Virus record (IMG/VR): IMGVR_UViG_2799112923_000001
Reading direction: 5' to 3' (one strand)
Origin: a virus
Taxonomy: Duplodnaviria > Heunggongvirae > Uroviricota > Caudoviricetes
Length of the DNA stretch: 64,000 nt
Shown here: piece after piece, positions 27,229 to 58,974 of the stretch
Position numbering within the stretch: the first letter of the stretch is position 1
How the letters are laid out: each line of letters begins with the position of its first letter
The notes under the pieces: generated by a model
The model's input: only the letters and a program-made list of their open reading frames with translations
Database searches by the model: none
Told to the model about the DNA's origin: nothing
Position numbers and translations under genes: made by a program

Positions 27229-27493
27229 TTCTTCAGTATTCAAAAAAACTTTTTTGTTAAAATACCCATTGACAATTAGAATTTTTAATACTATATTATA
27301 TCTCGTTAAATGATTGAGAACAACCATTAAACGAAAACAGAAAAAGAGAAGTTAAATGTAAAAAACATTTTACAAAACTACCTCTTGACAATGGATTGAA
27401 AAGAATCTATATTAGTTCTCGTTGATTGGTTGAGTAATCAAGAAACAAATTTTGAAAAATAAAAATTATACATACAATATAGGAAAACAGAAA

Positions 27494-27625
27494 ATGATGT
27501 CTATTAAGAATCTACATAACATTTGCTCCGAACGAGATTGGCTCCGCGTCAATGCCAATTCAATGCAGGGTGCATTTGCAGGCATCGCCTTTATTGAATG
27601 TGGAGAGGGATTATATAGTCCGTAG
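27494..27625 (+). CDS. Putative attenuator leader peptide of tRNA cluster 1 (43 aa)
   Basis: AGGA RBS; MMSIKNLHNICSERDWLRVNANSMQGAFAGIAFIECGEGLYSP; 3' end overlaps antiterminator arm. Confidence 0.7.
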   Translation: MMSIKNLHNICSERDWLRVNANSMQGAFAGIAFIECGEGLYSP

Positions 27626-27689
27626 ATTTTATTTGTTTTTCCGGCGTAACAAATTAAATCCATTGGACTAAAATCCAATGGATTTTTTT
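27608..27689 (+). promoter_or_regulatory. Antiterminator/terminator switch before tRNA cluster 1
   Basis: Terminator AAATCCATTGGA-CTAAAA-TCCAATGGATTT+T run; alternative hairpin 27608-27637 with 27648-27676. Confidence 0.7.
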
Positions 27690-27744: not shown

Positions 27745-27819
27745 GGCCCTATCGTCTAGTTTTGGTTAGGACACAAGAATTTCACTCTTGAAACACCAGT
27801 TCAAATCTGGTTGGGGCTA
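27745..27819 (+). tRNA. tRNA-Glu(TTC)
   Basis: CAAGA-ATTTCAC-TCTTG anticodon arm. Confidence 0.85.
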
Positions 27820-27834
27820 CTAACAAACTAATAT

Positions 27835-27907
27835 GGTACTGTAGAATACTTGGTTAGTTCGCTGCCCTTTCAAGGCGGAAAAGAGAGTTCAAATCTCTCC
27901 AGTACTA
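27835..27907 (+). tRNA. tRNA-Glu(TTC)
   Basis: CTGCC-CTTTCAA-GGCGG. Confidence 0.9.
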
Positions 27908-27920
27908 CTAACAAATTAAT

Positions 27921-27994
27921 GGGTGTGTGGTGAAGTGGTTTAACACACCGGTCTGTCTAACCGGCATACGCGGGTCCGAATCCCGCCATACTCG
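27921..27994 (+). tRNA. tRNA-Asp(GTC)
   Basis: CCGGT-CTGTCTA-ACCGG. Confidence 0.9.
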
Positions 27995-28006
27995 CTAAAA
28001 CATTTT

Positions 28007-28080
28007 GGTTTCGTGGTGAAGTGGTCTAACACATTGGTCTGTCTAACCAACATTCGTGGGTTCAAATCCCACCGGAATCG
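28007..28080 (+). tRNA. tRNA-Asp(GTC)
   Basis: TTGGT-CTGTCTA-ACCAA. Confidence 0.9.
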
Positions 28081-28090
28081 TACAAATTAT

Positions 28091-28166
28091 GGGCTTGTAG
28101 TTCAGTCTTTGGTAGAACGCCGCACTTGCACTGCGGAGGTCATGGGTTCAAATCCCTTCAGGTCCA
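28091..28166 (+). tRNA. tRNA-Ala(TGC)
   Basis: CCGCA-CTTGCAC-TGCGG, G3:U70. Confidence 0.9.
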
Positions 28167-28181
28167 CTACATACAAATTAT

Positions 28182-28254
28182 TCCACCTTAGATCAGTTGG
28201 TAGATCAGGGCACTGTTAATGCCTTAGTCCCAGGTCCGAGTCCTGGAGGTGGAG
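28182..28254 (+). tRNA. tRNA-Asn(GTT)
   Basis: GGGCA-CTGTTAA-TGCCT. Confidence 0.9.
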
Positions 28255-28308
28255 CGAAAACAAAAAATGGTGGTAATCCACTGGTGCTGGAAGCACCTTA
28301 AAAACTTG

Positions 28309-28382
28309 GCCCTCTAATCCAAATCCAGTGATTGGACCGGACTGAAAATCCGAGAAGCTGCGGGCGGCACGCAGAGTGGGCA
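28309..28382 (+). tRNA. tRNA-Phe(GAA), atypical D and T loops
   Basis: CGGA-CTGAAAA-TCCG; T arm CTGCG-GGCGGCA-CGCAG. Confidence 0.7.
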
Positions 28383-28394
28383 CGAACAAATTAT

Positions 28395-28467
28395 TCCGGT
28401 ATAACTCAACTGGTAGAGTGTTTCCTTCATACGGAAAAAGTTGTAGGTTCAAATCCTACTACCGGGA
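28395..28467 (+). tRNA. tRNA-Met/Ile2(CAT)
   Basis: TTTCC-TTCATAC-GGAAA. Confidence 0.85.
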
Positions 28468-28479
28468 CTAACAAATTAA

Positions 28480-28555
28480 CTCTCCTTCGCCTAGCTGGTT
28501 TATGGCACCTGTCTTACAAACAGGAACAACCTTGGTTCAAATCCAAGAGGGGAGA
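28480..28555 (+). tRNA. tRNA-Val(TAC)
   Basis: CCTGT-CTTACAA-ACAGG. Confidence 0.85.
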
Positions 28556-28558
28556 TAC

Positions 28559-28629
28559 TGCCCATTGGTGTAATGGTAACACGGCTCGCTCTGACCGAGC
28601 AATCAGTAGTCCGAATCTATTATGGGCAA
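28559..28629 (+). tRNA. tRNA-Gln(CTG)
   Basis: GCTCG-CTCTGAC-CGAGC. Confidence 0.85.
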
Positions 28630-28641
28630 CGAACAAATTAT

Positions 28642-28718
28642 CGGCAACTATCTCCTCGCTCTGATAAGGCGTTGAAAGAGTAAATGGTTACATGTAGGTT
28701 CAATCCCTATGTTGCCGA
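28642..28718 (+). tRNA. Rearranged tRNA-Ile(GAT)-like RNA
   Basis: Acceptor CGGCAAC/GTTGCCG, CGCT-CTGATAA-GGCG arm, T arm present, no D arm in normal position. Confidence 0.6.
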
Positions 28719-28722
28719 CTAT

Positions 28723-28796
28723 CGCCCGGTGACGGAACTGGCATACGTGTCTGCCTTAGAAGCAGAATTTTGAGAGTTCAAATCTCTCCTGGGCGA
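28723..28796 (+). tRNA. tRNA-Leu(TAG), short variable loop
   Basis: TCTGC-CTTAGAA-GCAGA. Confidence 0.85.
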
Positions 28797-28808
28797 CTAA
28801 ACATTTTT

Positions 28809-28893
28809 GGAGGTGTGGCAGAGCGGCTTATTGCGTCGGTCCTGAAAACCGAAGATGGTAAAACATCCGTGGGTTCAAATCCTACCACCTCTT
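28809..28893 (+). tRNA. tRNA-Ser(TGA)
   Basis: TCGGT-CCTGAAA-ACCGA, long variable arm. Confidence 0.85.
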
Positions 28894-28901
28894 CTACTTA
28901 T

Positions 28902-28974
28902 ACTCTCGTAGGCTAACTGGATAAACCACTGGACTACGAATCCGGCATTGAAGGTTCAAATCCTTCCGAGAGTA
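28902..28974 (+). tRNA. tRNA-Arg(ACG)
   Basis: CTGGA-CTACGAA-TCCGG. Confidence 0.9.
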
Positions 28975-28988
28975 CGAACAAATTATTT

Positions 28989-29062
28989 GTGGCTATATCA
29001 TAGTCTGGTTAATGAGCCTGTTTACCAAACAGGTTACCTGGGTTCAAATCCCAGTAGCCACT
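28989..29062 (+). tRNA. tRNA-Gly(ACC)
   Basis: CCTGT-TTACCAA-ACAGG, U73. Confidence 0.8.
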
Positions 29063-29070
29063 TACCAAAT

Positions 29071-29159
29071 GCTTATGTGACCCGAGTCTGGCGAAGGGGG
29101 CGGTCTGCAAAACCGTTGTGTTTACAGCACCATCGTTGGTTCAAATCCAATCATAAGCT
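29071..29159 (+). tRNA. tRNA-Cys(GCA), long variable arm
   Basis: GCGGT-CTGCAAA-ACCGT, U73. Confidence 0.85.
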
Positions 29160-29163
29160 CTAT

Positions 29164-29234
29164 ATCTCATTGGTGTAACGGCAGCATGGCTGGTTCCAAC
29201 CCAGTTGGTGGGGGTTCAAATCCTTCATGAGGTG
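29164..29234 (+). tRNA. tRNA-Trp(CCA)
   Basis: GCTGG-TTCCAAC-CCAGT, G73. Confidence 0.85.
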
Positions 29235-29247
29235 CGAAAGTAAATAA

Positions 29248-29319
29248 GTCCTATTGGTGTAGCTGGAAACATGGCAGTCTTCCAAACTGGTGTCGCGGGT
29301 CCGAACCCCGCATAGGGCT
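29248..29319 (+). tRNA. tRNA-Gly(TCC)
   Basis: CAGT-CTTCCAA-ACTG, U73. Confidence 0.85.
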
Positions 29320-29338
29320 CTACAAACAAACTATCATC

Positions 29339-29412
29339 TCCGTATTAGTGTTAATTGGTTAGCACGCAAGTTTGTGGCACTTGTAGTCTGAGTTCAAATC
29401 TCAGATATGGAA
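29339..29412 (+). tRNA. tRNA-His(GTG), lacking G-1/C73
   Basis: CAAGT-TTGTGGC-ACTTG. Confidence 0.8.
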
Positions 29413-29415
29413 TAT

Positions 29416-29487
29416 ATCTCCGTATGTCAATGGTTAGACGAGCAGACTCTTAATCTGTGGATCTGGGTCCGAATCCCAGCGGGGGTA
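29416..29487 (+). tRNA. tRNA-Lys(CTT)
   Basis: GCAGA-CTCTTAA-TCTGT. Confidence 0.9.
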
Positions 29488-29501
29488 CGAACAAATTAAA
29501 T

Positions 29502-29574
29502 GGGCTTACATGTTCCTTGGAGGCGAATCTCCCTAGCACGGAGATTGTGATGGGTCCGATTCCCATTAGGTCCA
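29502..29574 (+). tRNA. tRNA-Ala(AGC)
   Basis: TCTCC-CTAGCAC-GGAGA, G3:U70, atypical D arm. Confidence 0.75.
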
Positions 29575-29583
29575 CGAAATCAT

Positions 29584-31920: not shown

Positions 31921-32354
31921 ATTCTACAGTTCTCAAAAATAAAAATTTTTGGATCAGTATAAACAAATTAACTATATTTGGCAATAAAATAGTAAGTCTA
32001 TTTCCTCGGAGCGAAGCTCAACTCAATGCAGTTATCGGTAGAGGGATAGCCATTTTGCCAAATAGTTCGGTGGCATCGGAATGTAAGAACATCGTAGTTT
32101 GGATTAGCAACCCAAACATATAGCCGCTTTGGTAGAATAGAATGTAGCTGGAGTACAGGAAAACCGACCCATAAGTCTATTCGTAAATCCCACAGAAGTT
32201 GATACTTATACTTTATACAAAAAAGAAGGTATCTCAAGTTCTAGTTGACCTAACTAGGCTTGAAGTATCCTCTTACCATTACCAAAAAAGAATTCATTAA
32301 AAATCATTTTTGAGTTTATCTCAAAAATGATTTTGTTTGCGTTAGCAAACATAC

Positions 32355-36545: not shown

Positions 36546-37319
36546 ATGGCAAAGAACAACAACAACACCAAGATTTCCACCATCAACGCTGAAACTCGTA
36601 CCCACTACGAACCGCTCCCCATCACCGACGAGGAACACGCAGATATCCAGGCTCGCCTGATGAAGCATGGTCTTTGTATCAAGCAGGGTAAGAAGCATGC
36701 CCGTGTGTATCGTTTCAAGGGTTGGAAGAACAAGAAGATGCTCACTAGCCCGGACTTCGTCTATGTTATCCAGGCGGATGACTACCGTGCTAACCCGGAT
36801 GGTGTGATTGCCGAATGTGTTGCGAAGTCCGAACAGGTCTTTACGAAGAAGACCAAGAAGGTCAAGAATGCTGAATATGAACGCAACATGTTCAAGGTAG
36901 AAGAAAAGCTGCTCATGGAACACGGCATCAAGATGCAGTGGAAGGTTTCAAAGCATGCGATTTTCAAGCAGGTGGCTCACATTTGTACAGACCGAAAGGT
37001 TCTTGAGGTTCTTGACGAATACGCAAAGAACAACGGCCCATTTGTAACGAACCATCTCCGTGCCACGAAGGACGGAAAGCACCTGGAAATTTTCCGCAAG
37101 CTGATCCGTATCTTTGAAGAATTTGAAAAGGATGTTCCTGATTACGATTGGCACTCCTTCCGCTATATCACAAAGAATGGCAAGGTAGTGTGTGCCTACT
37201 CTACTGTGGACATGACAAAGATTAAGAATGTGGCATTTGCCCGTGGTATCAACGATAAGTTTGATTTCAACCTGAACATCAACAACTATGTGAACGACGT
37301 TCTCGGAATCACGAAGTAA
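36546..37319 (+). CDS. Basic hypothetical protein
   Basis: Own promoter, GAGGT RBS, terminator after; C-ending codon bias. Confidence 0.8.
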   Translation: MAKNNNNTKISTINAETRTHYEPLPITDEEHADIQARLMKHGLCIKQGKKHARVYRFKGWKNKKMLTSPDFVYVIQADDYRANPDGVIAECVAKSEQVFTKKTKKVKNAEYERNMFKVEEKLLMEHGIKMQWKVSKHAIFKQVAHICTDRKVLEVLDEYAKNNGPFVTNHLRATKDGKHLEIFRKLIRIFEEFEKDVPDYDWHSFRYITKNGKVVCAYSTVDMTKIKNVAFARGINDKFDFNLNINNYVNDVLGITK

Positions 37320-42488: not shown

Positions 42489-43172
42489 ATGGGATTTTGG
42501 AACCGAGATAAAGATTACAAACCTTGGGATTGGGACCCGAATAGGGATGACCCGGACAAGAACGGTCGCAACGATGAATTTCGTGAATCCGAAGAAGATA
42601 AACTTTTCCACCAGGAAAAGAGTGAATTTGAATGGAACGAAATTGAAAATCGTATTGGTCCTGAAATGATTAAGAACGGCCTGAAAGACAACAAAGAAAT
42701 TCAGGAAGAATATCAACGCCAGACCTCTGGTATGGCAACTAATCTAATGATGCTCCAGCTCACTAATTGGAAGTTCGCTCACAATAACGAAGCCGCCAAG
42801 CGAATGATTGATGTAGCAAAGAAGTTAGACCCAGATGGACATACATTTGAAAAAATGATGGACAGTTCCAAAGTTATGGAAATTCTCCGTTCTAACAGGC
42901 GTAATGATGATTCTGTGAATATGAGTGCTATGGTTGCTTTTGGTGTGGCTCTCACCGATCACTGCGTGAACAAAGATATTCAGCAGACTATCCTGCGTGA
43001 ATACGAATCACAAAAGAAGTTCTTCAGGGAAAAGGGTGAACTGGAATACACAGCATTCTTAATGGGTGTTGAAACACAAAAGTATTTCGTAGAAGAAATG
43101 TGGCTCAAAGAACAGGTCTATAAAGAAATTGATGAACTGGAAAAGACACCTGTGCCAAAAGATAATAAGTAA
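42489..43172 (+). CDS. Hypothetical protein
   Basis: 227 aa, AAGGAG RBS. Confidence 0.75.
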   Translation: MGFWNRDKDYKPWDWDPNRDDPDKNGRNDEFRESEEDKLFHQEKSEFEWNEIENRIGPEMIKNGLKDNKEIQEEYQRQTSGMATNLMMLQLTNWKFAHNNEAAKRMIDVAKKLDPDGHTFEKMMDSSKVMEILRSNRRNDDSVNMSAMVAFGVALTDHCVNKDIQQTILREYESQKKFFREKGELEYTAFLMGVETQKYFVEEMWLKEQVYKEIDELEKTPVPKDNK

Positions 43173-43245
43173 TTCCACAGTTCAAATAAAATAAAAATAT
43201 CCTTCAAGGGGTTGAAATCTTGAAGGATTTTATTATATATACAAT

Positions 43246-43323
43246 ATGATTATGAATAATACACAAATTAGATTGCCTAAACACTATTACTTAATAGCGG
43301 TTAGCGGTGATTATTTTGTGTAA
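43246..43323 (+). CDS. Putative attenuator leader peptide of tRNA cluster 2 (25 aa)
   Basis: MIMNNTQIRLPKHYYLIAVSGDYFV; 3' end pairs with terminator 5' arm. Confidence 0.65.
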   Translation: MIMNNTQIRLPKHYYLIAVSGDYFV

Positions 43324-43396
43324 ACTGTGAATGTTCATATTGTAGGAAAACAGAAACAAGATTTTCACCGCAACATAAAACTGTTGCGGTTTTTTG
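43304..43396 (+). promoter_or_regulatory. Antiterminator/terminator switch before tRNA cluster 2
   Basis: Terminator ACCGCAACA-TAAAAC-TGTTGCGGT+T run; 43304-43319 pairs 14/16 with 43356-43371. Confidence 0.7.
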
Positions 43397-43429
43397 TTTA
43401 TATATTTTTACAAAAATTATTCATATTTT

Positions 43430-43835
43430 GGTTGACAAGGGGGTAATGGATTACTATATTATAGTGTGTTAAGAGAATGGTTTGGTTCGTGAAACCAAAT
43501 AGTAGATTGAAAATTGGAATGTGTAAAAAATTTGCGTTTGTTAATACTCGCCTTGGTTGTGGTTGTGAACCACCTGCGGATAGAGATTAACAAATGTAAA
43601 TTACATTTTACAAAAAAAATTCAAAATATGGGTTGACAAACGATAAACAATTAACTATCTTTGTTCACACAAAGAAAATGATTGGTTCGTGAAATCAATT
43701 TGTAGATTGAATGATTTGGAAAATGTAAAAATAAAATTTACAAAAAAATTTACTAAAATGGGTTGACAAACAGAAAATGTTTTACTAAATTTGTGAAACA
43801 CGAATGATTGAAAATCGTTTGAGTAGATTGAAATT
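43430..43835 (+). promoter_or_regulatory. Three tandem sigma70 promoters each followed by a short repeat ending GTAGATTGAA
   Basis: GGTTGACAA at about 43430, 43631, 43762 with TA.TAT/TAAAT -10 boxes. Confidence 0.75.
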
Positions 43836-44119: not shown

Positions 44120-44192
44120 GGGTTTGTAACTCAGTTGGTAGAGTAACGCACTTTTAATGCGTGAGTCGGGGGTCCGAGTCCCCCCAAGCCCA
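44120..44192 (+). tRNA. tRNA-Lys(TTT)
   Basis: ACGCA-CTTTTAA-TGCGT. Confidence 0.9.
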
Positions 44193-44292
44193 CGAACAAA
44201 CTAATGTTCCAAAAGGGAAAAAGCGGGTGGCTCATAGAGCCTAGCCACAAGATGGAAGCCCGCCCACTCAGGTGCGATTTTTGGAATGTTAC

Positions 44293-44366
44293 CGGGATGT
44301 AGTTCAATCTGGTAGAATGGTCGCTTTGGGAGCGAGTGGTTGCAGGTTCAAATCCTGTCATCCCGA
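44293..44366 (+). tRNA. tRNA-Pro(TGG)
   Basis: TCGC-TTTGGGA-GCGA. Confidence 0.9.
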
Positions 44367-44679
44367 CGAAAGGTTTAAGATTTGGAAACCGTTAACCTTT
44401 AAAAATGGGTAGGATATGATGGTAGTCCTTTTAACACTGACATCCATTAATTGTTATGTTGTTTAAATTAGGAAAGCAGGGATGCGATAACCTGCACGAT
44501 TAACCAACATCGTTAGTTCATTTGTAGTTAGAACAAATTAAACAACTGACTATGGGATATAAACTATCTTGAAGGCCAAAAGATATTATCCCCGAGTAGA
44601 TAGGCGAAACCGGTTCGTAATAAACAAGGCTCTCGCCACGATTTTAATAGTTTGTGATGATACAAACAACAGAACTTAT

Positions 44680-44763
44680 TGGTAGGTACCCGAGTGGTAG
44701 CAGGGGGGAGACTGTTAATCTCTTGTCGCAAGACCGCCGCAGGTTCGAATCCTGCCCTATCAG
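44680..44763 (+). tRNA. tRNA-Asn(GTT), Tyr-like long variable arm
   Basis: GGAGA-CTGTTAA-TCTCT, G73. Confidence 0.85.
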
Positions 44764-45105
44764 CTAAAAGAATGAATGGTTAGTAGTACAAATGAACTCA
44801 ATGTAGTAATACTGAGTGCTTAGTACACTCTCCAATAAACCGGAGAGAGATGTTAATGTGACTGTTATGGGTCATTGGTTTAACCTAACTGAGTGTTTAA
44901 CAAAATCACATTTGGTAGTAAAAGGTACAAACTACGCCTGCGCAGATGCCGGGAGTTGCCAACATCCTAAATTGGTAATGTGGTGAATGAATACAAACTA
45001 AACTGGATGATGTTGTATTCTACGAACAATATAATTACCAGTAGTCAATTATGTTGCGAGGCACTTTTTTCCATAGTATGCGTCAAAATGGAACAAATTT
45101 TATAT

Positions 45106-45190
45106 GCTAGTTTCGGATAGTGGTCAATTCCTGGAGACTGTAAATCTCCCGCCCTCTGGGCTTTCGGTGGTTCAAATCCACCAGCTAGCA
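45106..45190 (+). tRNA. tRNA-Tyr(GTA)
   Basis: GGAGA-CTGTAAA-TCTCC. Confidence 0.9.
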
Positions 45191-45226
45191 CTAATACAGA
45201 ATTTTGAAGAATGGTGATGTGAAACA

Positions 45227-45302
45227 GTCCCCATACGCAAGTGGCTAAAGCGGCTCCCTGAACGAGGGAGTGAATTCATGGGTTCAAATCCCATTGGAGA
45301 TT
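45227..45302 (+). tRNA. tRNA-like element, nominal Val(AAC) or pseudo-tRNA
   Basis: D and T arms intact; CTCCC-TGAACGA-GGGAG; mismatched acceptor. Confidence 0.5.
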
Positions 45303-45566
45303 GAAGTAGCATTGAACAAATCAGGCCTCATACGCAATTTGTTCTAACCAAACTTCATCGGGTGAATAGATGATTGAAAATCCTAGGTAATCATTCAGTC
45401 ACAATTCACCCACCGGTTTTGAAGAAAACTAAATCAACAGGTGGTGTTATACTATTAATTTGTTGTAAACATAGTTGATTCCCACCCGCCCGTCTAAAAA
45501 GATGAATGTGAAGGCCTCCGGCGATGCTCCGATAAACGCATTGTGATTTAGAACAACATTTTTTTC

Positions 45567-45640
45567 GCACCCGTGGCTCAACTGGATAGAGCAACGCACT
45601 TCTAATGCGTAGGTTGTAGGTCCGAGTCCTACCGGGTGTA
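45567..45640 (+). tRNA. tRNA-Arg(TCT)
   Basis: ACGCA-CTTCTAA-TGCGT. Confidence 0.9.
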
Positions 45641-45650
45641 CTAAATTTAC

Positions 45651-45723
45651 TGGGGTATAGCCAAGCTGGTAAGGCAGGGGCCTTTGAAGCCTTTATTCGG
45701 GAGTTCAAATCTCTCTACCCCAA
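45651..45723 (+). tRNA. tRNA-Gln(TTG)
   Basis: GGGGC-CTTTGAA-GCCTT. Confidence 0.9.
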
Positions 45724-45836
45724 CGAAATCAGTTGATGAATGCATCTCAATGTTTAGAAACACAGAACGCATGGTGGAAATCCTGCAAGCAGAAGTTGTG
45801 ACTGCGATAATAAATTAAATAACAACAAATTCTTTC

Positions 45837-45910
45837 CCATCCTTAGTTCAACTGGTTAGAGCGCGGCTCTTATAAGGCTGAAGTTCTAGGTTCAAATCCT
45901 AGAGGGTGGA
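45837..45910 (+). tRNA. tRNA-Ile(TAT)
   Basis: CGGCT-CTTATAA-GGCTG. Confidence 0.85.
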
Positions 45911-45944
45911 CTACCGCTTTTCGCCATAGTACGGGTCAAAATGG

Positions 45945-46445
45945 CAAAATGTGAAAGTAGTTCAAAAGCGATTAGCACCACGCAAATACAAGGTTTGTAT
46001 TGGATGCAAGTTTGACAAGCGTTTCGCTAGTGGTAAGAACGAGTTGCTTCCGAAGATTGGCAGAATCAGCTATGTAAGGCTGTTTAGGAAGTGTAAAATG
46101 CAAGTGTTATGTAGTACACGGACCACGCAAGGTAAATGACCTTATGCTATGCCCACGATAGTCTTTCACTCACAAAGTAGATATATGTGAAAAATACCAA
46201 GTGGTTTACCAATTTGCCTCTATCTACAAAATTGGAAAATCTTTAATGGTTATAGACGAAACTGACCAATGTAAAATAGTTATATGCTCCTTGATAAAGT
46301 GGAATTTATTTTGGATAAAGTATATTATAAAATCTATTTGAATAATACAATAGTTAGACGTTTAGCAGTGAAAAGTTAGACAGAGTAATGATGGCTCGTT
46401 AAGCCCTATCCGAGGGTGTAGTTGAATGGCACACTGGTAAGAACA
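45945..46445 (+). ncRNA. Candidate large structured ncRNA
   Basis: About 500 nt without a credible ORF between tRNAs, many short helices. Confidence 0.35.
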
Positions 46446-46479
46446 AAAACTAAATGAACTAAACAAAACATCATACTAT

Positions 46480-46563
46480 GGCCTGGTGATGAAATTGGTA
46501 AACATAGGGGACTTAAAATCCCCCGGTGGTAACACCTTGTGGGTTCAAGTCCCACCTTGGCTA
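46480..46563 (+). tRNA. tRNA-Leu(TAA)
   Basis: GGGGA-CTTAAAA-TCCCC. Confidence 0.9.
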
Positions 46564-46591
46564 CGAACAAAATAATTGGAGATTATTAACT

Positions 46592-46801
46592 ATGATTAAT
46601 ACTGGTTGGGTTCCAGGTTATCTACAAACTACTGGCAGAATGTTACATGAGAGTGGCAAACGCGGTGGTGGTTGTGGTGGACCGAAGAAAGACGATGACG
46701 ATGATGACGAAGATATTAGCATTGTAAAGATTTTACTTTTTTTGTTATTATTCTTTGGTATTGTTGGATTATTCTTTTTCTTGCTTTGTGTTATGTTTTA
46801 A
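46592..46801 (+). CDS. Small membrane protein within tRNA cluster
   Basis: GGAG RBS; poly-D then C-terminal TM. Confidence 0.6.
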   Translation: MINTGWVPGYLQTTGRMLHESGKRGGGCGGPKKDDDDDDEDISIVKILLFLLLFFGIVGLFFFLLCVMF

Positions 46802-46917
46802 TTGTGAAGTTTAGCAAAAACAAAATTCATAAATAAACCATTGACAAACATAAAACAAAAAACTATAATTGAATATGTAAACGATACGAATTTAGACGGA
46901 TAGTCAATTTCTTTCGG

Positions 46918-46991
46918 GCCTCATTGATGTAGTGTTAGCATGAAATGTTTCCGACCTTTTCGCCTGAGTTAGATTCTCAGATGAGGCTCCA
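46918..46991 (+). tRNA. Atypical tRNA-Gly(TCC)
   Basis: GCCTCAT/ATGAGGC-T-CCA; no D-loop GG; T loop TTAGATT. Confidence 0.55.
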
Positions 46992-47094
46992 AAAAGAAAA
47001 AAGAATTTTGGTTTCCAATTTTTCCTTAAAAATTGGTGGTGGTCGCTTGGAATTTTGTTAGTTTATCCATGACCAAAACAAAACTAACAACCAT

Positions 47095-47179
47095 CCTCCG
47101 ATGGCGGAACTTGGTAGACGCGCTGGACTCAAAATCCAGTTCTCGCAAGAGAGTGTGAGTTCAATTCTCACTTGGAGGA
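47095..47179 (+). tRNA. tRNA-Leu(CAA)
   Basis: CTGGA-CTCAAAA-TCCAG. Confidence 0.9.
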
Positions 47180-47399
47180 CTAATACCAAAGTAAAATAGA
47201 GAACTGTGATTTAAAAGTATCAGGTAGTTTGTAGTACTGACCTTAACAAAAACTAGGAAATTTGAAGAGTCATTGGCTTAACCAATGTGGAGCGATACCC
47301 CTGATAAGGGTTCCCGCAAGCTGTGTAGTGCTTTGAACTACACACAAATTTAGAAGGAGAAAATGGTTTGTTAATTTACCACAAATAAATTAACACCAT

Positions 47400-47472
47400 G
47401 CCTGGTTAGCACAGCTGGTAGTGCAGCGGCTTTGTAATCCGCAGGTCGGGGGTTCGGGTCCCTCACCAGGCG
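47400..47472 (+). tRNA. tRNA-Thr(TGT)
   Basis: GCGG-CTTTGTAAT-CCGC. Confidence 0.85.
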
Positions 47473-47485
47473 TAATAAATAAACA

Positions 47486-48100
47486 GATTGAGAAATCAAT
47501 CAAGCGAAATCTTTAGCCTAATACAAATCTAATCTGGTTTGAAGGCACTATGGATGCACTGAAAAGGTGTTTGAAGTAGGTATGAGATAATCGCAAAAAC
47601 ATAGGGTAAACTGCGTAACTATTAGTTAGAGGTTTATATGTTTGTGGAATTTTGAGATACCCAGGGTTCCACAGGCTACGAAACAGATGTGGCGTCTGAG
47701 TTCAAATATAAGTCGCTAAAGCCGAAATAGTGAGAGTTTTATCGGATGACAGATATGCTATTTTTGGCACAGATTGCCGATATGTGTGTAAATCCACACC
47801 AGTGACTTGTAGCATTGAAAGGGGTAGCTGCCGAGTAAATGTGTTGCTGTGACCTAATAATGTTTGGTTATTTCATTAAAGGTAAACCCCAGTCCTTTAA
47901 GTTTCGTTTTATTGATTTTTCAATCTTGAACAAGATAATCCAGGAAACGGAGGTTTGTTATCTCATAGCGACGCACTGCTATCTGTAAGATAATGAGCGG
48001 GCACGAAATGGAAGCGCTGACACTCTAAGCTCTGTTAGACATGGACTGATAATTAATATATCTTGTTAGGGTACCTAAATGTCCGAGAGTACCTGCCATT
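47486..48100 (+). ncRNA. Candidate large ornate ncRNA (ROOL/GOLLD-like context)
   Basis: 47486-47508 pairs with 47902-47925; 47581-47590 pairs with 47958-47967; no ORF. Confidence 0.55.
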
Positions 48101-48193
48101 TAAACAAAAACATACTTGGTTGTCCTACGAACCTTCACGATTTTTGAAATCGTAAAGGAATGAGAGTTTGTATGTTCTCTCATAAGATTTTAT

Positions 48194-48267
48194 CGCGGGG
48201 TGTAAGCAGTTGGTAGCTGGCAAGGCCCATAACCTTGAGGTCGCGGGTTCAAGTCCCGCCCCCGCTA
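48194..48267 (+). tRNA. Initiator tRNA-fMet(CAT)
   Basis: CGCGGGG acceptor with C1 mismatch; CAAGG-CCCATAA-CCTTG. Confidence 0.85.
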
Positions 48268-48738
48268 GAATTTGTCCACAAAGAAAAATGCGGTCAGAAC
48301 GCATTGGACCTTTTCCTGGTGAGAGCCTCGTAACTAGGACTGTAGCAAACGAGGCAACGAATTTAACGCGGCACAATTATTCTTTTTGCGAATTTGTTTA
48401 AAACAAACACAGATTCCACCATAAGAAGAAATAATTTCGTACAAACGCAAATAATCCTAATGACGTCTAATGGAACGATTGTGAGTGCGGCGACCAATTA
48501 ACTAATGGCTGATAGACGATAAATAAAATGAAGATATGAATATGGTTGCGGGTTGAGTCTAGATATTCCTTCTAGAATTATTCATTTCTCGGAAGTGACG
48601 AATCGGTATTCTTCCGGGCCATTATTTTGAAATTTAAACGTCTCCTAGGCGGTTATTGGTTCTTTACAATTTTCTCCACTAATCAAAAGAAAATCTATTT
48701 TTTGTTTGTTGTTACCTCCTTGGGTTGTGGTTGACCCA

Positions 48739-48771
48739 ATGCTCACTAGCGAATGTTAGTGAGCATTTTTT
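48739..48771 (+). terminator. Terminator ending tRNA cluster 2
   Basis: ATGCTCACTAGC-GAAT-GTTAGTGAGCAT+T run. Confidence 0.85.
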
Positions 48772-48958
48772 GTAAGTACTGGTGCCATACTGACCAGTTT
48801 TTATTTAATTGGTATAGTTTACTATCCAACACAGAAATCGCCTTATAACGCAAGTACTGACGAATACTGTGTAAACAAACTTTTACAAAGAAATAGTTGC
48901 CAACCTGTATATTAGTTACTATATTATGGTTGTTAAAAATTAAAAGAGAGGTAAAAAT

Positions 48959-49863: not shown

Positions 49864-49985
49864 CCACCCGTGGTGTAATGGTAGCACGGTAGGATATAAT
49901 AGAGATAAATTATTATTGATTTTTATAATAGAGTTATATAATAATAATTGGAATCAGGTGGGTGGTTCAAATCCCCCGGGGTGGT
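49864..49985 (+). ncRNA. tRNA-like RNA with AT-rich insertion replacing anticodon arm
   Basis: CCACCCG-TGGTGTAATGGTAGCAC 5' half; GGTTCAAATCCC-GGGGTGGT 3' half. Confidence 0.6.
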
Positions 49986-49998
49986 CTAAATTAGAATT

Positions 49999-50193: not shown

Positions 50194-50349
50194 ATGAAAA
50201 AGAAGAAAGTAGTTATTGAGAAAGAAACACAGGAACAGAAAGAAGCTCGTTGGAAGAAGAATTTGAAGATGGCACGAAGTTTTGCTAAACAAGCAGGTGT
50301 AAAGAAAGAAAAGAAAGTAGAAAAGCAATCGGAAAAATACGATTACTAA
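50194..50349 (+). CDS. Small Lys/Glu-rich protein (51 aa; not in ORF track)
   Basis: AAGGA RBS. Confidence 0.55.
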   Translation: MKKKKVVIEKETQEQKEARWKKNLKMARSFAKQAGVKKEKKVEKQSEKYDY

Positions 50350-50357
50350 CTACAGTT

Positions 50358-52767: not shown

Positions 52768-53718
52768 ATGGCAGTTAAAACTATTCACACATTTAAGCAG
52801 TTATGCGAACGTATCATTATGAATGGTCCTGAAGACCAGAACTATTACAGTGATGAAGCACAACCAGATGTAGTTTACATTTCAAAGGAACTCAATGATG
52901 GAGCGAATGACATTAAGTTGTGGTATTCTGTAACCGGCAACGGTCGCCCAGTATATCTCGGGTACACTGGTTTGTGTTATTTCCCAAATGGCTCTCTCGT
53001 TGTGGATGATGTAAAGCCAACGATTAAGCCAAAGCCACAGTGGGATTATCCAATGAGCCATAAGCAAATTTTGGATTTGGCAAATTCTCGTTTGGCTAAG
53101 TATGGTTTATCAATGGAAAATTTCAGTTCCCAGTGGAATGATAAACATAAGAACTCAAAGATTTTAAAGTTGGAAAAGATTCCTGGTTGTAAGAAACGAT
53201 TCTGCTATGACCAGCCCCGATATTGTTCTGTTTGTAGCATTTCTTATGAAACTTCACCAAAGCAGGTTTTCTTTGGTTGTAATCTTGACGATGTGGATAG
53301 TGATTTTATGAAAGAAGGCAGACTGCAAGCTTCTTCTACCTATATCAAGATTCCATTGGCATTTAGACTAATTGAAGAAGATTACGCAATCTACTATGAC
53401 AACAATAAGGACCACGAATGGAAGAAGTATGGTTCTGTTGCGTATAATTTGGATTTGGTAGTTTGTAGAACACCTGAAGAAATCAATGCTTGGTTTGACA
53501 AGTTTGACGCATATTATTCTCGTCTCCAGGAACAGGCAAAGATTACATCCGAAGTATTTGATTATGTTAAGACTAATGGTAAACCATATAAGGACATTAT
53601 GAAAACATATACAAAGCGAACTCAGCAATACAAGGATGCTCGTAAGAACTACGAAGATATGATTTTAGGACAAATTAAGAGAATTACAGCTCTTGACAAA
53701 ATTAACAATGACTTCTAA
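52768..53718 (+). CDS. Hypothetical protein, DF-tail family; paralog of 53734 ORF
   Basis: Shared LAN.RLAK...KRFCY...DSDFM.EG.LQASSTYIK.PLAF...QIKRITA.D.INNDF. Confidence 0.8.
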   Translation: MAVKTIHTFKQLCERIIMNGPEDQNYYSDEAQPDVVYISKELNDGANDIKLWYSVTGNGRPVYLGYTGLCYFPNGSLVVDDVKPTIKPKPQWDYPMSHKQILDLANSRLAKYGLSMENFSSQWNDKHKNSKILKLEKIPGCKKRFCYDQPRYCSVCSISYETSPKQVFFGCNLDDVDSDFMKEGRLQASSTYIKIPLAFRLIEEDYAIYYDNNKDHEWKKYGSVAYNLDLVVCRTPEEINAWFDKFDAYYSRLQEQAKITSEVFDYVKTNGKPYKDIMKTYTKRTQQYKDARKNYEDMILGQIKRITALDKINNDF

Positions 53719-53733
53719 AAGGAGAATAAACTA

Positions 53734-54492
53734 TTGCCAGCAAGTAATACTATTCAACAGCTCATTCAGCTCGCACAGTCTTTCCAAAATTCTATCACAT
53801 CGGGTCAACCAGTCAATCTCAACCAGGTCTTTGGGTCACCTAGCCAGCAGAAAACATTCAATATGAACATCGCAGACATTGAAGCTCTCGCTAATGCTCG
53901 TCTAGCAAAGAATAGTTTGGCTCTCAAGTCCTATCACGAAGACCCAGATTGGGATTTCAAGTGTGTTAAGGGAGAGGATATTCCAAATTTCACAAAGAGA
54001 TTCTGTTATTTCCGAGAAGGCTTTGCTGGAGAATGTTTGTGTGGTCTTTCTATGCAATCGGGTAAGCCAGCTCTCATTTGTGCTGACATTAATGACATTG
54101 ATAGTGATTTTATGAGCGAAGGTAATCTCCAGGCCTCATCTACCTATATCAAACACCCTCTAGCATTTCATTTGTTTAGATTTGGTGACCTGATGCATTT
54201 TGACCAGGGCTTGTGTTTTGGTGTTCCTGTAGAAGTTCTCGCCACTGAAGACGAAATTAACGCATGGTTTGATAAGTTTGATTCTATCTATCCTCGTCTC
54301 CAGGCTCAAAATACTATGGTTGCCGAGGTCTATAAGAATGTTAAAGAACTTGGTAAGCCATACAAAGATATTATGAAAACTTATCAAAAGCGAACAAATG
54401 AATACAAGGAAGCCCGTAAGAACTATGAAGAAATGATTTTAAATCAAATCAAGCGAATTACGGCTGTGGACCAGATTAACAACGATTTCTAA
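53734..54492 (+). CDS. Hypothetical protein, DF-tail family; paralog of 52768 ORF
   Basis: TTG start after AAGGAG; ends AVDQINNDF. Confidence 0.8.
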   Translation: MPASNTIQQLIQLAQSFQNSITSGQPVNLNQVFGSPSQQKTFNMNIADIEALANARLAKNSLALKSYHEDPDWDFKCVKGEDIPNFTKRFCYFREGFAGECLCGLSMQSGKPALICADINDIDSDFMSEGNLQASSTYIKHPLAFHLFRFGDLMHFDQGLCFGVPVEVLATEDEINAWFDKFDSIYPRLQAQNTMVAEVYKNVKELGKPYKDIMKTYQKRTNEYKEARKNYEEMILNQIKRITAVDQINNDF

Positions 54493-54505
54493 GGAGAAAC
54501 TTATT

Positions 54506-54940
54506 ATGGCATATTCTGTTGGTGATTTTAAGAAAATGATGAAAGATGCGTATAAAACCGCATTTGGTTATCGCGGTGCCACCGGTTTTAATATCTATCG
54601 CAGATATGCCGGTAATAAGTTCCGTTATTGTAGTGAATGTGAAGTTAACGAACTAAATGCTCCAGGTGGTTTCACTCATTGGATTCCTAAGGCTAATCCC
54701 ACAGATCCAAAGAAAGTAAAATACATTGGTTTTTGGTTCGGTGTGTATATTACAGATGCTACCGGAACTAGAATGGATTTACATTATATTCATTTTATGT
54801 ACGAAGATACTACTATCCTTGGTGTATGTTATGAAGATTTTGATAATCCACAAACACAGCTTCAAATTAATAGTGGTATCACACCTACCACAACTCCAAT
54901 GAATGTTCAGTTAAACGATTTCATACAGGCTTTTAAGTAA
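54506..54940 (+). CDS. Hypothetical protein
   Basis: AAGGAG RBS. Confidence 0.7.
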   Translation: MAYSVGDFKKMMKDAYKTAFGYRGATGFNIYRRYAGNKFRYCSECEVNELNAPGGFTHWIPKANPTDPKKVKYIGFWFGVYITDATGTRMDLHYIHFMYEDTTILGVCYEDFDNPQTQLQINSGITPTTTPMNVQLNDFIQAFK

Positions 54941-55245
54941 TGAACTTATTCCAAATTAAAAATCTACTAGAGAAAGACGCAGATCTAATTAAGACCTTGG
55001 ATAGCAATTCAAGTTTCCGATTTGATTGCAAACTAGAATATGAATACCAGGGACATGGTATTCTCTCAGTAGATGGTGGTTGGGTTCAGGTTGCCGGTCT
55101 AAACATTTATATGGAATATCTCAGTAAGAAAGACCTTCTTTCTAGGATAGAGATAGGAAAAGAGAGAATCCGTAATCTTATTAGAGAGAATAAAGAAAGA
55201 CTTGTTGAAATTCATTTAAAACAAATGAATATGGATTTTGAATGA
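54940..55245 (+). CDS. Hypothetical protein, DF-tail family
   Basis: Ends LKQMNMDFE. Confidence 0.7.
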   Translation: MNLFQIKNLLEKDADLIKTLDSNSSFRFDCKLEYEYQGHGILSVDGGWVQVAGLNIYMEYLSKKDLLSRIEIGKERIRNLIRENKERLVEIHLKQMNMDFE

Positions 55246-55562
55246 TTTTTGAACATATTGCTGATATAGAAAAATTGTTAAAGAAATATGGATTTTCTTT
55301 GAACCGATACCATGATTCTGTAATCACTCGTTGGAATTTGTATTATAATAATTCCGGCGGAAGTATTGCTGAGTTATGGAAGAATAATAAATTGGGTCAG
55401 TATAAAATACGATATGAACAGAGTGCAGGAAATGTGCCAGCATATTCTATGGAATTATGCGATGATGAAAAATTTGAACAGTATCTAATAGATTATATTA
55501 GAGAAAGAAAAGAAGCCAATGTAAGAATTAAATTATCCGATATAAAAAAGGATTTTGAATGA
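55242..55562 (+). CDS. Hypothetical protein, DF-tail family
   Basis: Ends LSDIKKDFE. Confidence 0.7.
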   Translation: MIFEHIADIEKLLKKYGFSLNRYHDSVITRWNLYYNNSGGSIAELWKNNKLGQYKIRYEQSAGNVPAYSMELCDDEKFEQYLIDYIRERKEANVRIKLSDIKKDFE

Positions 55563-55846
55563 CTTTTGAAAGATTTAAAGAAATGGTAAAACAAGACCCT
55601 ACAATTATTGTAGTTATAGATACACCTAAAAAATTTGTTTGTAACTACAATGAGAGAGAATTGTTATCTTCTAATGGTGCAGTTGTTCTCTCGTTTAATA
55701 TGAATATGCGTTATGAGTATATGAGTGAAGAAATGGCTAAGTTCGTTATCCAAAATGGTAAAGATTATGTTAATCATTATATTAAATGGGATAAAGAACT
55801 TAGAGAAACTGAAAGATTAGAAGAAATACAGAAGGATTTTGTATGA
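55559..55846 (+). CDS. Hypothetical protein, DF-tail family
   Basis: Ends LEEIQKDFV. Confidence 0.7.
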   Translation: MTFERFKEMVKQDPTIIVVIDTPKKFVCNYNERELLSSNGAVVLSFNMNMRYEYMSEEMAKFVIQNGKDYVNHYIKWDKELRETERLEEIQKDFV

Positions 55847-56154
55847 TTACTCTTGACCGAATTAGAGAACTATGTTTACAGTTTGGTTATAAACCATTTG
55901 ATAGAGAACCAAACGAATACCATATTGGAGAGTCTTCAGTATTTAAAGTATTACCAAATGAAACTAGCAAAAATGTAGTTTACTGGGACACGATGTATAC
56001 TTTGGGTACAAGATACTCTAATACAGATTTGACTGAAGAAAAAGTAATTGAAATGATTAAAGAAAATCTAAAATGTGTTCAAAAACACGAAGAAATGAGA
56101 AAGAAAAAATTAGAACACAGAATGTTGAGCAGTATTCAAGAGGATTTTAGATGA
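55843..56154 (+). CDS. Hypothetical protein, DF-tail family
   Basis: Ends LSSIQEDFR. Confidence 0.7.
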   Translation: MITLDRIRELCLQFGYKPFDREPNEYHIGESSVFKVLPNETSKNVVYWDTMYTLGTRYSNTDLTEEKVIEMIKENLKCVQKHEEMRKKKLEHRMLSSIQEDFR

Positions 56155-56552
56155 TTACTTTGTGCCAAATTAAAGCATTACAGAGAGAATTTGATTTAAC
56201 CTATACTGAAGAATTTGGCTATATCACTATAGGCTCTAAACATCCAGCATGGGAACTAAAGCATGGGCAAATGGCATTAGCACAGTTCTCTTATTGGGAA
56301 TGTGAAAAACAATACAATTTAATCTATCTCGCTGCCGTAATTCACAAAACACCGAATGAATTTATTCTATTACCCGCTGGCTATGATAAAGATGGAACAA
56401 ATGTTGCCTCTATCCATGCTCCACCTCTCTCTTACGAACAACTGCGTATTCACCTTAAATCTCTCCTTGAAGATTTTGATTATCTCTCCCTCTATAAGAA
56501 ACAACTAAAATTACAACAAAATATCTCTAATATCTCTCATGATTTTAAATAA
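56151..56552 (+). CDS. Hypothetical protein, DF-tail family
   Basis: Ends ISNISHDFK. Confidence 0.7.
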   Translation: MITLCQIKALQREFDLTYTEEFGYITIGSKHPAWELKHGQMALAQFSYWECEKQYNLIYLAAVIHKTPNEFILLPAGYDKDGTNVASIHAPPLSYEQLRIHLKSLLEDFDYLSLYKKQLKLQQNISNISHDFK

Positions 56553-56868
56553 AGACTCTCTCATACAATTATTAACCCAAAATGGGTGTGAGTATTGCTC
56601 CTGCCCACCTTCTCTCACTTACAAAGATTATAGATTTCTATCCTTTAATCATTGGTTTTATGATACAGATACAGATTTTAGATTACATACACATCTAACT
56701 AAAACACTCATGACTAATCATGGGTTAAGATGTAAGTATACAAATACCTCTCCTGAATTTATTCTCTATCATTTAGAGAAATTCAAAATGTGGGTAGATA
56801 GGCTCTCTCTCAAAGAAAAACAAGAAAAACTTACTAATATGATTGGCAAAATTCAAGAGGACTTCTAA
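56539..56868 (+). CDS. Hypothetical protein, DF-tail family
   Basis: Ends IGKIQEDF. Confidence 0.7.
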   Translation: MILNKDSLIQLLTQNGCEYCSCPPSLTYKDYRFLSFNHWFYDTDTDFRLHTHLTKTLMTNHGLRCKYTNTSPEFILYHLEKFKMWVDRLSLKEKQEKLTNMIGKIQEDF

Positions 56869-57323
56869 TGAACTTAACTTTGGAAGAAATAGAACATATT
56901 TGTAGTAGATATAATCTACAGTTTATCCAAACAAGTCCAACAGAACATCAATTATTTCTTCGCTCTGATATATTTGGGGCATATTCTTATCCTGAATTGG
57001 GAGGTTATATCTTACCTGTAGCCGATTTTAAAATGACCGCCGACATCCATTCCAAATATGCTCTATACAATACTTATAATGCTTTTCTTATGAGAGACTT
57101 CCAAACAATACCACCTTATATCTGTTTATTCCGAGCCATCACACCCGCTGAAAAATCTCATGGTGATATTATCTTTCTTAATACCCAATTCACTTATATC
57201 CCAGATTCTATACAGTTTATGAATTATATCCATTGGATATTAGATACTATCCCGGAAGCATCCAAATATCTCAAACAATATAAACAAAATAAACTTTTTG
57301 AACAAATACAAAAGGATTTTTAA
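56868..57323 (+). CDS. Hypothetical protein, DF-tail family
   Basis: Ends FEQIQKDF. Confidence 0.7.
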   Translation: MNLTLEEIEHICSRYNLQFIQTSPTEHQLFLRSDIFGAYSYPELGGYILPVADFKMTADIHSKYALYNTYNAFLMRDFQTIPPYICLFRAITPAEKSHGDIIFLNTQFTYIPDSIQFMNYIHWILDTIPEASKYLKQYKQNKLFEQIQKDF

Positions 57324-57658
57324 TGCTTATCCCTTATTCTAAATTAGAGAATGTAAGAACTTTGTTCACGAATTTAGGTATTAAAGATACCAATTATGGT
57401 GTATTTGAAGAATTTTATATCTCCCGCCCACACTTGGCTAATTTAGTAATAGCCGAATTACATAAAGATGTTCCCGGCTTCGCTATCTTACTCTTTAAAA
57501 TCTATATCAAAGATAATAACCTGTATAATGATAGAAATGATAGAATCCTAATAGATAATATCCCAGATCTAATCTCTACCCTTGACAATTATTCTTTAAT
57601 TCTTAAACAATACGAACAAATACTAGAAATTAAAAAGATTAAGAAGGATTTCCTATGA
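57323..57658 (+). CDS. Hypothetical protein, DF-tail family
   Basis: Ends IKKIKKDFL. Confidence 0.7.
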   Translation: MLIPYSKLENVRTLFTNLGIKDTNYGVFEEFYISRPHLANLVIAELHKDVPGFAILLFKIYIKDNNLYNDRNDRILIDNIPDLISTLDNYSLILKQYEQILEIKKIKKDFL

Positions 57659-58035
57659 ATCGTTATAGATTAAAAGACATTTATTCTCTATGTGGTCTTT
57701 TTCCTAATGACTTCAAGGTTTATAAAAACTCTACCTCTTATGGTATTACATCTCTCAAACTGAACACTATTATTATAGCATTTCAACAAGTATCTAATAC
57801 ACGATATGAAATTCATGCTATAACAAACTGTTTTATGTTTTCTAATGGTGGTATCGCACCTTGTGATTCTAATAGAATGGTATCCGATATATTTACTGAC
57901 TATGTGTTTAAGAATGTACCAAACAAATTATCCGATTATTTAAGATATTTTCGTGATAATTTCCAATATGTAGAAAAAGCATATAAAGAATACTTATATG
58001 CCAAAAAACTAAACAATATATCTGAGGATTTTTAA
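57655..58035 (+). CDS. Hypothetical protein, DF-tail family
   Basis: Ends LNNISEDF. Confidence 0.7.
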   Translation: MNRYRLKDIYSLCGLFPNDFKVYKNSTSYGITSLKLNTIIIAFQQVSNTRYEIHAITNCFMFSNGGIAPCDSNRMVSDIFTDYVFKNVPNKLSDYLRYFRDNFQYVEKAYKEYLYAKKLNNISEDF

Positions 58036-58205
58036 TAAGAATGAAATTATCCCTATATGGTATTTATTAGCAAAAAACTGTGGTGAAACCACGAAATTTG
58101 CTATTGAACCAGTGTTTGACCCACTTTGCACGGTTTGTTGCAGTAAATAAAAAAATTTTTTGAAAAAAGAATATATTTACAAGTAAAGGATAAATTTATA
58201 TATTA

Positions 58206-58679
58206 TTGGCTATGGCAAAGTTATTAGGAATACAGTATTTGGATTATGATATAGCCAATAAGTATGTTGACATGTACAACAACATCGTAAAGGCTAATCA
58301 GGATTTTGAAAGTGAAAAGAAGGAAATAGAATTAGATTCATTTTGTAGCATTTACAATAAGTTTAGTAAGGAATGGAGTGATTTAATTTATTTAATCAGT
58401 TATGAAGAAGATGGTGAATATCATAATTTAATCAGTTATGTAGATAATGATGATGGATATAGAAGTTATGTAAAAACCATAGAATTAGCAGGATTAGGTC
58501 AACCATTATTAAAGCAGTTTGAATATGATGTAGATATATCAAGATATGTAAGTGGACAAAATGAAATAAATTATGATATTTTGATACAGTATGAGGGTAA
58601 GAATATATTTGAATGTTACACAGATAACAGTGATAATTATTATCCAGTAGGGAATATAGAATATCATGGATTTCAATAA
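58206..58679 (+). CDS. Hypothetical protein
   Basis: 157-aa acidic ORF. Confidence 0.65.
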   Translation: MAMAKLLGIQYLDYDIANKYVDMYNNIVKANQDFESEKKEIELDSFCSIYNKFSKEWSDLIYLISYEEDGEYHNLISYVDNDDGYRSYVKTIELAGLGQPLLKQFEYDVDISRYVSGQNEINYDILIQYEGKNIFECYTDNSDNYYPVGNIEYHGFQ

Positions 58680-58974
58680 TTTAATAGAAAAAGAACAGTT
58701 ATTGTATGCTCAAGGGTTTTATTATTTTGAGAAGGGTAGTCCATTAATCATGTATGAAAACTGCAATCAGTTTATGATATATGTTCGTCGGCATATACAA
58801 CTACTAGAAAATAATAAGATTGGTGATGGTGATTTTGATATAATGTTCAGGGAATCCGCAGATTTAGAACAACGAATACAAGCATTACGAATAGAATGGA
58901 ATAATATAGTATTATACTTTAAACAACTAAAAATGGAAAAACAACTACAACAACTGGAGAAAGATTTTGAATAA
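58666..58974 (+). CDS. Hypothetical protein, DF-tail family
   Basis: Ends LQQLEKDFE. Confidence 0.7.
   Translation: MDFNNLIEKEQLLYAQGFYYFEKGSPLIMYENCNQFMIYVRRHIQLLENNKIGDGDFDIMFRESADLEQRIQALRIEWNNIVLYFKQLKMEKQLQQLEKDFE

Follow-up and report, generated by a model that had tools for sequence, protein, structure and literature searches.

Why phages carry tRNA genes has been debated for decades, with codon compensation set against counter-defence (PMC10264068). The locus described here raises a narrower question: does a phage adjust the supply of its own tRNAs during infection, and in response to what? The locus lies in a 64,000-nucleotide stretch of viral DNA (hereafter the window), where a short ORF, leader 2, is followed by an intrinsic terminator and then by tRNA cluster 2. 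A sequence-only reading of the window had taken this arrangement for an attenuator whose codons match the cluster 2 tRNAs. We computed sequence features, conservation, structures and statistics, and from these we propose a start site, translation of the leader, its coupling to transcription, stalling and a trigger. On this sequence-based evidence, we put the probability that the locus is a leader-peptide transcription attenuator at about 0.9. A cis switch that lists the tRNAs under its control makes the phage-tRNA question testable.

Origin of the window

The window comes from a T4-like giant phage of the rumen. It carries baseplate, terminase and late-sigma genes, the last encoding a gp55-like late sigma factor (15742-16281, minus strand; phrog_234, E 1.9e-5). 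Close homologues were found on contigs of up to 407 kb, and the RNA and DNA runs that match it are for the most part from cattle and sheep gut. A search of 50,697 phage records gave no cultured relative and only tRNA-level matches, and the 227-aa protein encoded upstream of the leader had no relatives in viral contigs. Host labels from binned genomes carrying relatives were discarded, as the three labels were discordant and the bins are probably misbinned phage contigs. Other features of the window include an Rfam cow-rumen-2 RNA (32091-32195, 103 bits), whose flanking region is conserved in the relatives G001 and G002; an array of small, unrelated-looking genes with a common Asp-Phe C-terminal motif (52768-60039, plus 26770 and 49151); and a structured-looking non-coding unit (62200-62860) that has its own sigma70 promoter and terminator and no ORF.

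Transcription signals around the leader

A variant of the T4 gp55-type late promoter precedes the leader (43234-43241, plus strand) and is nearly invariant in alignment A2. It adjoins a terminator-like hairpin (43199-43236, plus strand) that closes the upstream early unit (gene 42489-43172); a similar hairpin was seen in L135 and L138. The canonical T4 late motif stands 5' of late genes at 1750, 10944, 19534 (minus strand) and 20454. Since this motif occupies positions -13 to -6 in T4 (PMC1524935), the predicted start of the leader transcript was placed at 43246-43247. The leader ORF has no ribosome-binding site, and the same spacing between late promoter and ATG is found 5' of long, nuclease-like ORFs in relatives. 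[quoted passage not shown]

The 15-nt promoter motif that the sequence-only reading had found at this locus and at a companion locus occurs only at 27466 and 43233. The 14-mer reported for the same two loci is indeed present (27480 and 43343) and rare by chance (6 of about 2,980 random pairs), but the near-identical strain L150 and all of the distant relatives lack it, and we do not regard it as a functional part. As a finder of relatives in viral contigs, the 15-nt pattern returned mostly unrelated matches without tRNA arrays and was abandoned.

Three sigma70 promoters (43432, 43633 and 43763; 43432-43791, plus strand) were confirmed downstream of the terminator, which they would bypass. One to three sigma70 promoters lie 3' of the terminator in every type-2 locus of the relatives as well, which suggests that only late or read-through input is gated. 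The earlier caveat that the switch may act only late is therefore probably correct, given also the encoded gp55-like late sigma and the same promoter geometry in relatives. Owing to the bypass promoters, the attenuated share of cluster 2 transcription may be small. Two studies supplied RNA contigs whose first positions are 43256 and 43262 and which extend across the terminator, a weak hint of a leader transcript, as the contigs carry no strand information and some may derive from DNA. Contig depth in run X1 is much greater 3' of 43415; the RNA runs are assembled contigs that give no strand, ends or level, and the missing leader cover in X1 was not counted as evidence.

After each sigma70 promoter of the tRNA array we noted a small hairpin with a conserved purine-rich motif (43470-43512, 43680-43712 and 43803-43835), seen also in the distant relatives L002, L153 and L004. 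It is a candidate nut-like antitermination or processing signal.

Folding of the leader transcript

Re-reading the sequence returned the leader ORF as it had been given (43246-43323, plus strand; 25 codons plus stop). Across 10 aligned loci its start is invariant and its internal indels are of 3 or 6 nt. Folding gave a trp-like, mutually exclusive set of pairings on the plus strand. Segment 1 (43246-43278) pairs with the segment 2 region (about 43305-43337; -17.7 kcal/mol). Segment 2 (43304-43322), the antiterminator strand at the ORF end, pairs with segment 3 (43356-43375; -23.1 kcal/mol), which includes the terminator 5' arm (43367-43375). Finally, segments 3 and 4 form the intrinsic terminator (hairpin 43367-43390, with its U tract 43367-43398; -13.0 kcal/mol). 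The 1:2 protector hairpin had been absent from the sequence-only reading and was found by folding. The pairing of 43304-43319 with 43356-43371, which overlaps the terminator 5' arm, was reproduced at 14 of 16 positions (13 Watson-Crick and one G-U). The 2:3 duplex has a z of -6.0 against shuffles, and segment 2 is the strongest upstream partner among the 14 terminator-like hairpins in the window.

A co-transcriptional model placed a ribosome on each codon of a transcript ending at the terminator loop. In all eight loci modelled, segment 2 holds segment 3 for A-site codons up to 16-18 and then releases it, and the 2:3 helix is lost at, or at most one codon from, the end of the matched stretch. 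The modelled switch in the window falls between codons 17 and 18, a position contingent on the footprint that was assumed. Folding to full equilibrium gives a clear switch in the window, L180 and L181 and a partial one in L135 and L178, and the terminator is favoured at every ribosome position in G001, G002 and L163. These three loci would therefore need kinetics, with 2:3 forming before strand 4 emerges.

A late-gene codon dialect decoded by cluster 2

Cluster 2 consists of 13 tRNA calls from Lys to Met (44120-48266, plus strand), with an internal sigma70 promoter at 46841. No plus-strand terminator was found before 48639-48775; the terminator at 48738-48775 (plus strand) closes the cluster and leaves a tRNA-Ser at 50357 outside. 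The companion attenuator (27467-27689, plus strand; leader 1 ORF 27494-27625, terminator 27656-27685) has a complementary codon set. Cluster 1 has 21 tRNAs (27745-29575, plus strand), three of which (Phe 28308, Ile 28643 and Ala 29502) escaped ARAGORN at default settings. All 33 sensing codons of leader 1 are read by cluster 1, and 14 of 14 exclusive families are covered.

We compared codon use in late genes with that in promoter-proximal early genes, defined as the first genes behind sigma70 promoters. At Lys, Gln, Arg, Ile and Leu positions, cluster 2 codons account for 58% in late genes versus 21% in early genes (odds ratio 5.3, per-gene p=5e-7; control AT3 shift, 1.5). The tRNAs of cluster 2 thus serve to decode a late-gene codon dialect. 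This tie is new here, and it is in keeping with feedback through a late promoter. Within the window, host-like codon bias is strongest in a 257-aa gene at 36546-37319, which has none of the cluster 2 type among 83 codons and no Pfam or Atlas match.

Several of the tRNAs are unusual in themselves. The atypical tRNA-Phe (28308-28380) and tRNA-Ile (28643-28718) were missed by both ARAGORN and Rfam, and an atypical Ile(UAU) resembling the latter occurs in L180 and L181. The tRNAs at 28989 (Gly), 29502 (Ala), 45226 (Val) and 50357 (Ser) have A34 anticodons, which are unusual in bacteria, and the tRNA-Val also has G for U at position 33. The tRNA-Asn (44680-44764) has a long variable arm and is about 83% identical to the tRNA-Asn of phiKZ-like phages. 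A second, weak-scoring tRNA-Gly(UCC) of cluster 2 (46918-46991) is kept in relatives and sampled by no type-2 leader. In L181 (1940-2284), a tRNA-Leu(UAA) is split by a 260-nt intron. A degenerate tRNA-like sequence with an insertion (49864-49987) lies 3' of a late-promoter motif at 49764, and a small basic ORF (50194-50349) ends just 5' of a tRNA gene; a similar small ORF stands 5' of tRNA-Leu in the distant G004 (L004, 14410-14560).

Proposed model of the switch and its trigger

Early in infection, the three sigma70 promoters past the terminator would transcribe cluster 2 without control. Late in infection, the gp55-type promoter would give a leaderless RNA, and ribosomes would translate its ORF in the wake of RNA polymerase. 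When cluster 2 tRNAs are plentiful, the ribosome would reach codon 18 or beyond and cover segment 2, and the 3:4 terminator would form. When any cluster 2 tRNA is short, the ribosome would wait in codons 2-17 and segment 1 would be held open. The 2:3 structure could then form as computed, and the polymerase would be expected to read on through cluster 2. Sensing would be at the level of isoacceptors. Since the cluster 2 tRNAs read codons that are preferred in late genes and shunned in early ones, the likeliest routine trigger would be late-gene demand exceeding supply. We consider it likely that the locus works in full as a late-infection negative feedback on the phage's own tRNA supply. With less confidence, we lean towards a wider picture in which the genetic code is split between two tRNA blocks, each with an isoacceptor-resolved ribosome sensor; leader 2 would close the loop on the late-dialect tRNAs, and tRNA supply would be metered in the late programme and would respond to tRNA loss.

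Cleavage of tRNAs by host defences would trip the same switch. It is conceivable, although we hold it doubtful, that the switch has been selected mainly as a counter-defence alarm, which senses when host anticodon nucleases cut particular tRNAs and replaces those lost. Where a defence cleaves tRNAs, phage-encoded ones rescue infection (PMC11555353; PMC10264068), and RNA ligase and kinase-like genes lie a few kb upstream in relatives. In addition, one codon per tRNA suits near-total loss better than mild shortage, and the companion leader samples nearly all other tRNAs. However, the content of cluster 2 is explained by the late-gene codon dialect without any nuclease. The two triggers, late demand and counter-defence, are not mutually exclusive.

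Codon coverage of the leader

Codon families were grouped by decoding tRNA. The sensing zone was defined as the codons at which a ribosome would keep clear of segment 2 (codons 2-17, 43249-43296, plus strand; 15 non-Met codons), with a ribosome footprint of +9 from the A-site codon that was chosen after the window had been inspected. The zone contains all nine cluster-2-exclusive families (Lys-AAA, Gln-CAA, Arg-AGA, Ile-ATA, Leu-TTA, Leu-TTG, Thr, Pro and Tyr) and Asn. The ten cluster 2 tRNAs that had been named as matching are all present in the window, and the only sensing codons that do not match are Ile-ATT (twice) and His-CAC (once), again as described. His-CAC is kept in the leader although cluster 2 has no tRNA for it. 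No sensing codon corresponds to Val(AAC), Gly(UCC) or the Ser(ACU) that is transcribed separately. The codons for the 10 families are mostly single and not in runs, and the sensitivity of the sensor may be low for this reason.

The claim that the codon match exceeds chance held for the completeness of coverage but not for the share of matching codons. Coverage of 9/9 families by the 15 sensing codons had p=0.0001 against mononucleotide shuffles and p=0.0025 against dinucleotide shuffles, and was reached by none of 20,000 phage ORF windows. A longer assumed footprint changes the coverage to 8/9 (p=0.003) or 7/9. The N-terminal null comprised only 58 ORFs, which bounds its p near 1/59. The share of matching codons, counted as own minus other, did not reach significance against dinucleotide shuffles (p=0.27), owing to the A-richness of the region, and this count was rejected as the key statistic.

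That p of 0.27, the presence of bypass promoters and the case of L174, which does without a leader, are what would be expected if the codon match were a by-product of a late-style ORF made A-rich through pairing, with a terminator that only insulates the tRNA promoters. We find this improbable. Complete coverage was reached in none of 6,502 late-gene windows and in 18 of 500,000 random draws from late codon usage, and the two other reading frames cover 3-4 of the nine families. Moreover, leader 1 has the same promoter and the opposite dialect, and the 2:3 pairing is conserved with changed sequence.

Leader and array in related phages

Leader, terminator and cluster recur in L135/L138, G001, G002, L140, L163, L178, L153/L180 and L157/L181. 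The marker protein of these relatives is about 56-78% identical to that of the window. The MAFFT alignment misaligns segment 3, and conservation of 2:3 was judged by per-locus duplex energies and not by pair counts. The 2:3 pairing is kept in all seven relatives measured (z -3.3 to -7.6 over 8 loci), and 1:2 and 3:4 are kept, with changed sequences, in the six relatives folded. The terminator shows compensatory changes in relatives. In L135, three linked changes (corresponding to 43303, 43372 and 43385) preserve 3:4 and lengthen 2:3.

Type-2 leaders cover 9/9 exclusive families in the window, 10/10 in G001, and 7/7 in each of L180 and L181, and the companion leaders cover 14/14, 15/15, 18/19 and 15/15. 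Of 96 cluster-exclusive families, the eight leaders of four phages thus cover 95. Leader 2 carries the Pro codon where tRNA-Pro is in cluster 2 (window and G001), and the other leader carries it where tRNA-Pro is in the other cluster (L180 and L181). Ser-AGY codons are in the leader of the cluster that holds the tRNA in four of four phages, and Tyr and Asn are partly so; leader 1 of G001 has no Asn codon, and its cluster 1 likewise has no Asn tRNA. A single evolutionary event may account for the moves of Pro, Tyr and Ser, the tree being mostly unresolved. The complementarity of the two codon sets, proposed for the window, extends to the relatives: within every phage, the two leaders divide the synonymous codons for Lys, Gln, Arg, Ile and Leu between them (p 0.0004-0.01; pooled 29:4 vs 3:33), which points to sensing at the isoacceptor level. 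The comparison of leaders and arrays therefore supports a ribosome-controlled attenuator matched to cluster 2, with all three pairings conserved while the sequence changed, frame-preserving indels, complete coverage in four lineages and a Pro codon that moves with tRNA-Pro.

The correspondence has exceptions and losses. L163 has lost cluster 1, all but one tRNA, together with leader 1. No leader was found at L174 cluster A or in the distant G004, and in L140 and L174 broad leaders precede arrays that have shrunk. The G002 leader lacks the core codon Leu-TTA. Model R1 returned no further type-2 leaders and gave leader 1 at noise level (27 bits, E 0.1); two other weak matches that were inspected proved to be ordinary genes.

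Even less probable than a by-product is a trans-acting product (a small peptide or the 150-nt terminated RNA) or a nascent-peptide arrest motif that drives the switch instead of tRNA supply: a peptide core of about ten residues is common to the window, L135, G001, G002, L140 and L163, but L178, L180 and L181 retain seven core codons (Lys-AAA, Gln-CAA, Arg-AGA, Ile-ATA, Leu-TTA, Leu-TTG and Thr-ACA) in a different order and not the order of the peptide, and the synonymous isoacceptor choice is conserved.

The contigs of the relatives showed some further features. Nuclease-like insertions are present in the tRNA arrays of L129, L140, L149, L163 and L004, each having a late promoter at a spacing that suits a leaderless start. 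In L140 (5530-5990), an insertion lies between promoter and leader 1, and cluster 1 is shrunken. Leader 1 and cluster 1 of L163 were lost at 11993. L178 (7777-7930) has, far from tRNAs, a leaderless 44-codon ORF behind a late promoter that runs into a hairpin, possibly a further attenuator.

Discussion

The tie of cluster 2 to the late-gene codon dialect suggests that the early-to-late programme includes regulation of the phage tRNAs. If leader 2 is the attenuator that we propose, read-through would show which tRNA becomes scarce, and at what time. Single codons of the leader can be changed one after another in a reporter, for which phage culture is not needed.

Leader-peptide attenuators of amino-acid operons include trpL, hisL, thrL and ilvL, and those of thr and ilv are multivalent, sensing several amino acids. 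The locus has the structure that defines a leader-peptide attenuator: the ORF overlaps segments 1 and 2, the folds are exclusive, a U-tract terminator stands 5' of the genes, and the codons are matched. It resembles the phe and trp class, of which E. coli pheL/pheA is described in PMC3082878, in its short leader ORF, in its exclusive 1:2, 2:3 and 3:4 pairings and in a predicted stall on regulatory codons that would free segment 2 and block termination. The features of the amino-acid-operon family were not found here as regards the target genes, the codon runs and the position of the attenuator between the main promoter and the genes. First, phage tRNA genes would be regulated, so that the product is the sensed molecule. 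Second, there is about one codon per tRNA over 9-10 families, specific for isoacceptors, and no tandem runs for one to three amino acids. Finally, the promoter is a phage late promoter, the mRNA is apparently leaderless, and bypass promoters lie 3' of the terminator. A conserved arrest peptide of the TnaC, ErmCL or SecM type was not found, as the residue order differs in L178, L180 and L181.

T-box riboswitches likewise tie the choice between terminator and antiterminator to tRNA state, but they bind tRNA directly and without translation. No Rfam family matched 43233-43400 at E up to 0.1. Unlike T-boxes, the locus has a conserved ORF that we infer to be translated.

Known phage tRNA regions include the tRNA-rich region of T5/SP15 (PMC11555353) and the T4-like tRNA genes behind early promoters (PMC1524935). 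The present locus is like them in its clustered phage tRNAs, its strong promoters and its possible roles in codon compensation or counter-defence. Their published control is promoter strength, unlike the attenuator proposed here, and neither PMC11555353 nor PMC13015707 mentions attenuation or a leader. We found no published leader-peptide attenuation of tRNA genes in the open-access literature, where most subscription papers are missing.

In the pheM/pheST attenuator of the host chromosome, the supply of charged tRNA controls the synthetase for one amino acid. Leader 2 would be like pheM/pheST in that charged-tRNA supply attenuates a component of the translation machinery, which is a synthetase there and a tRNA array here.
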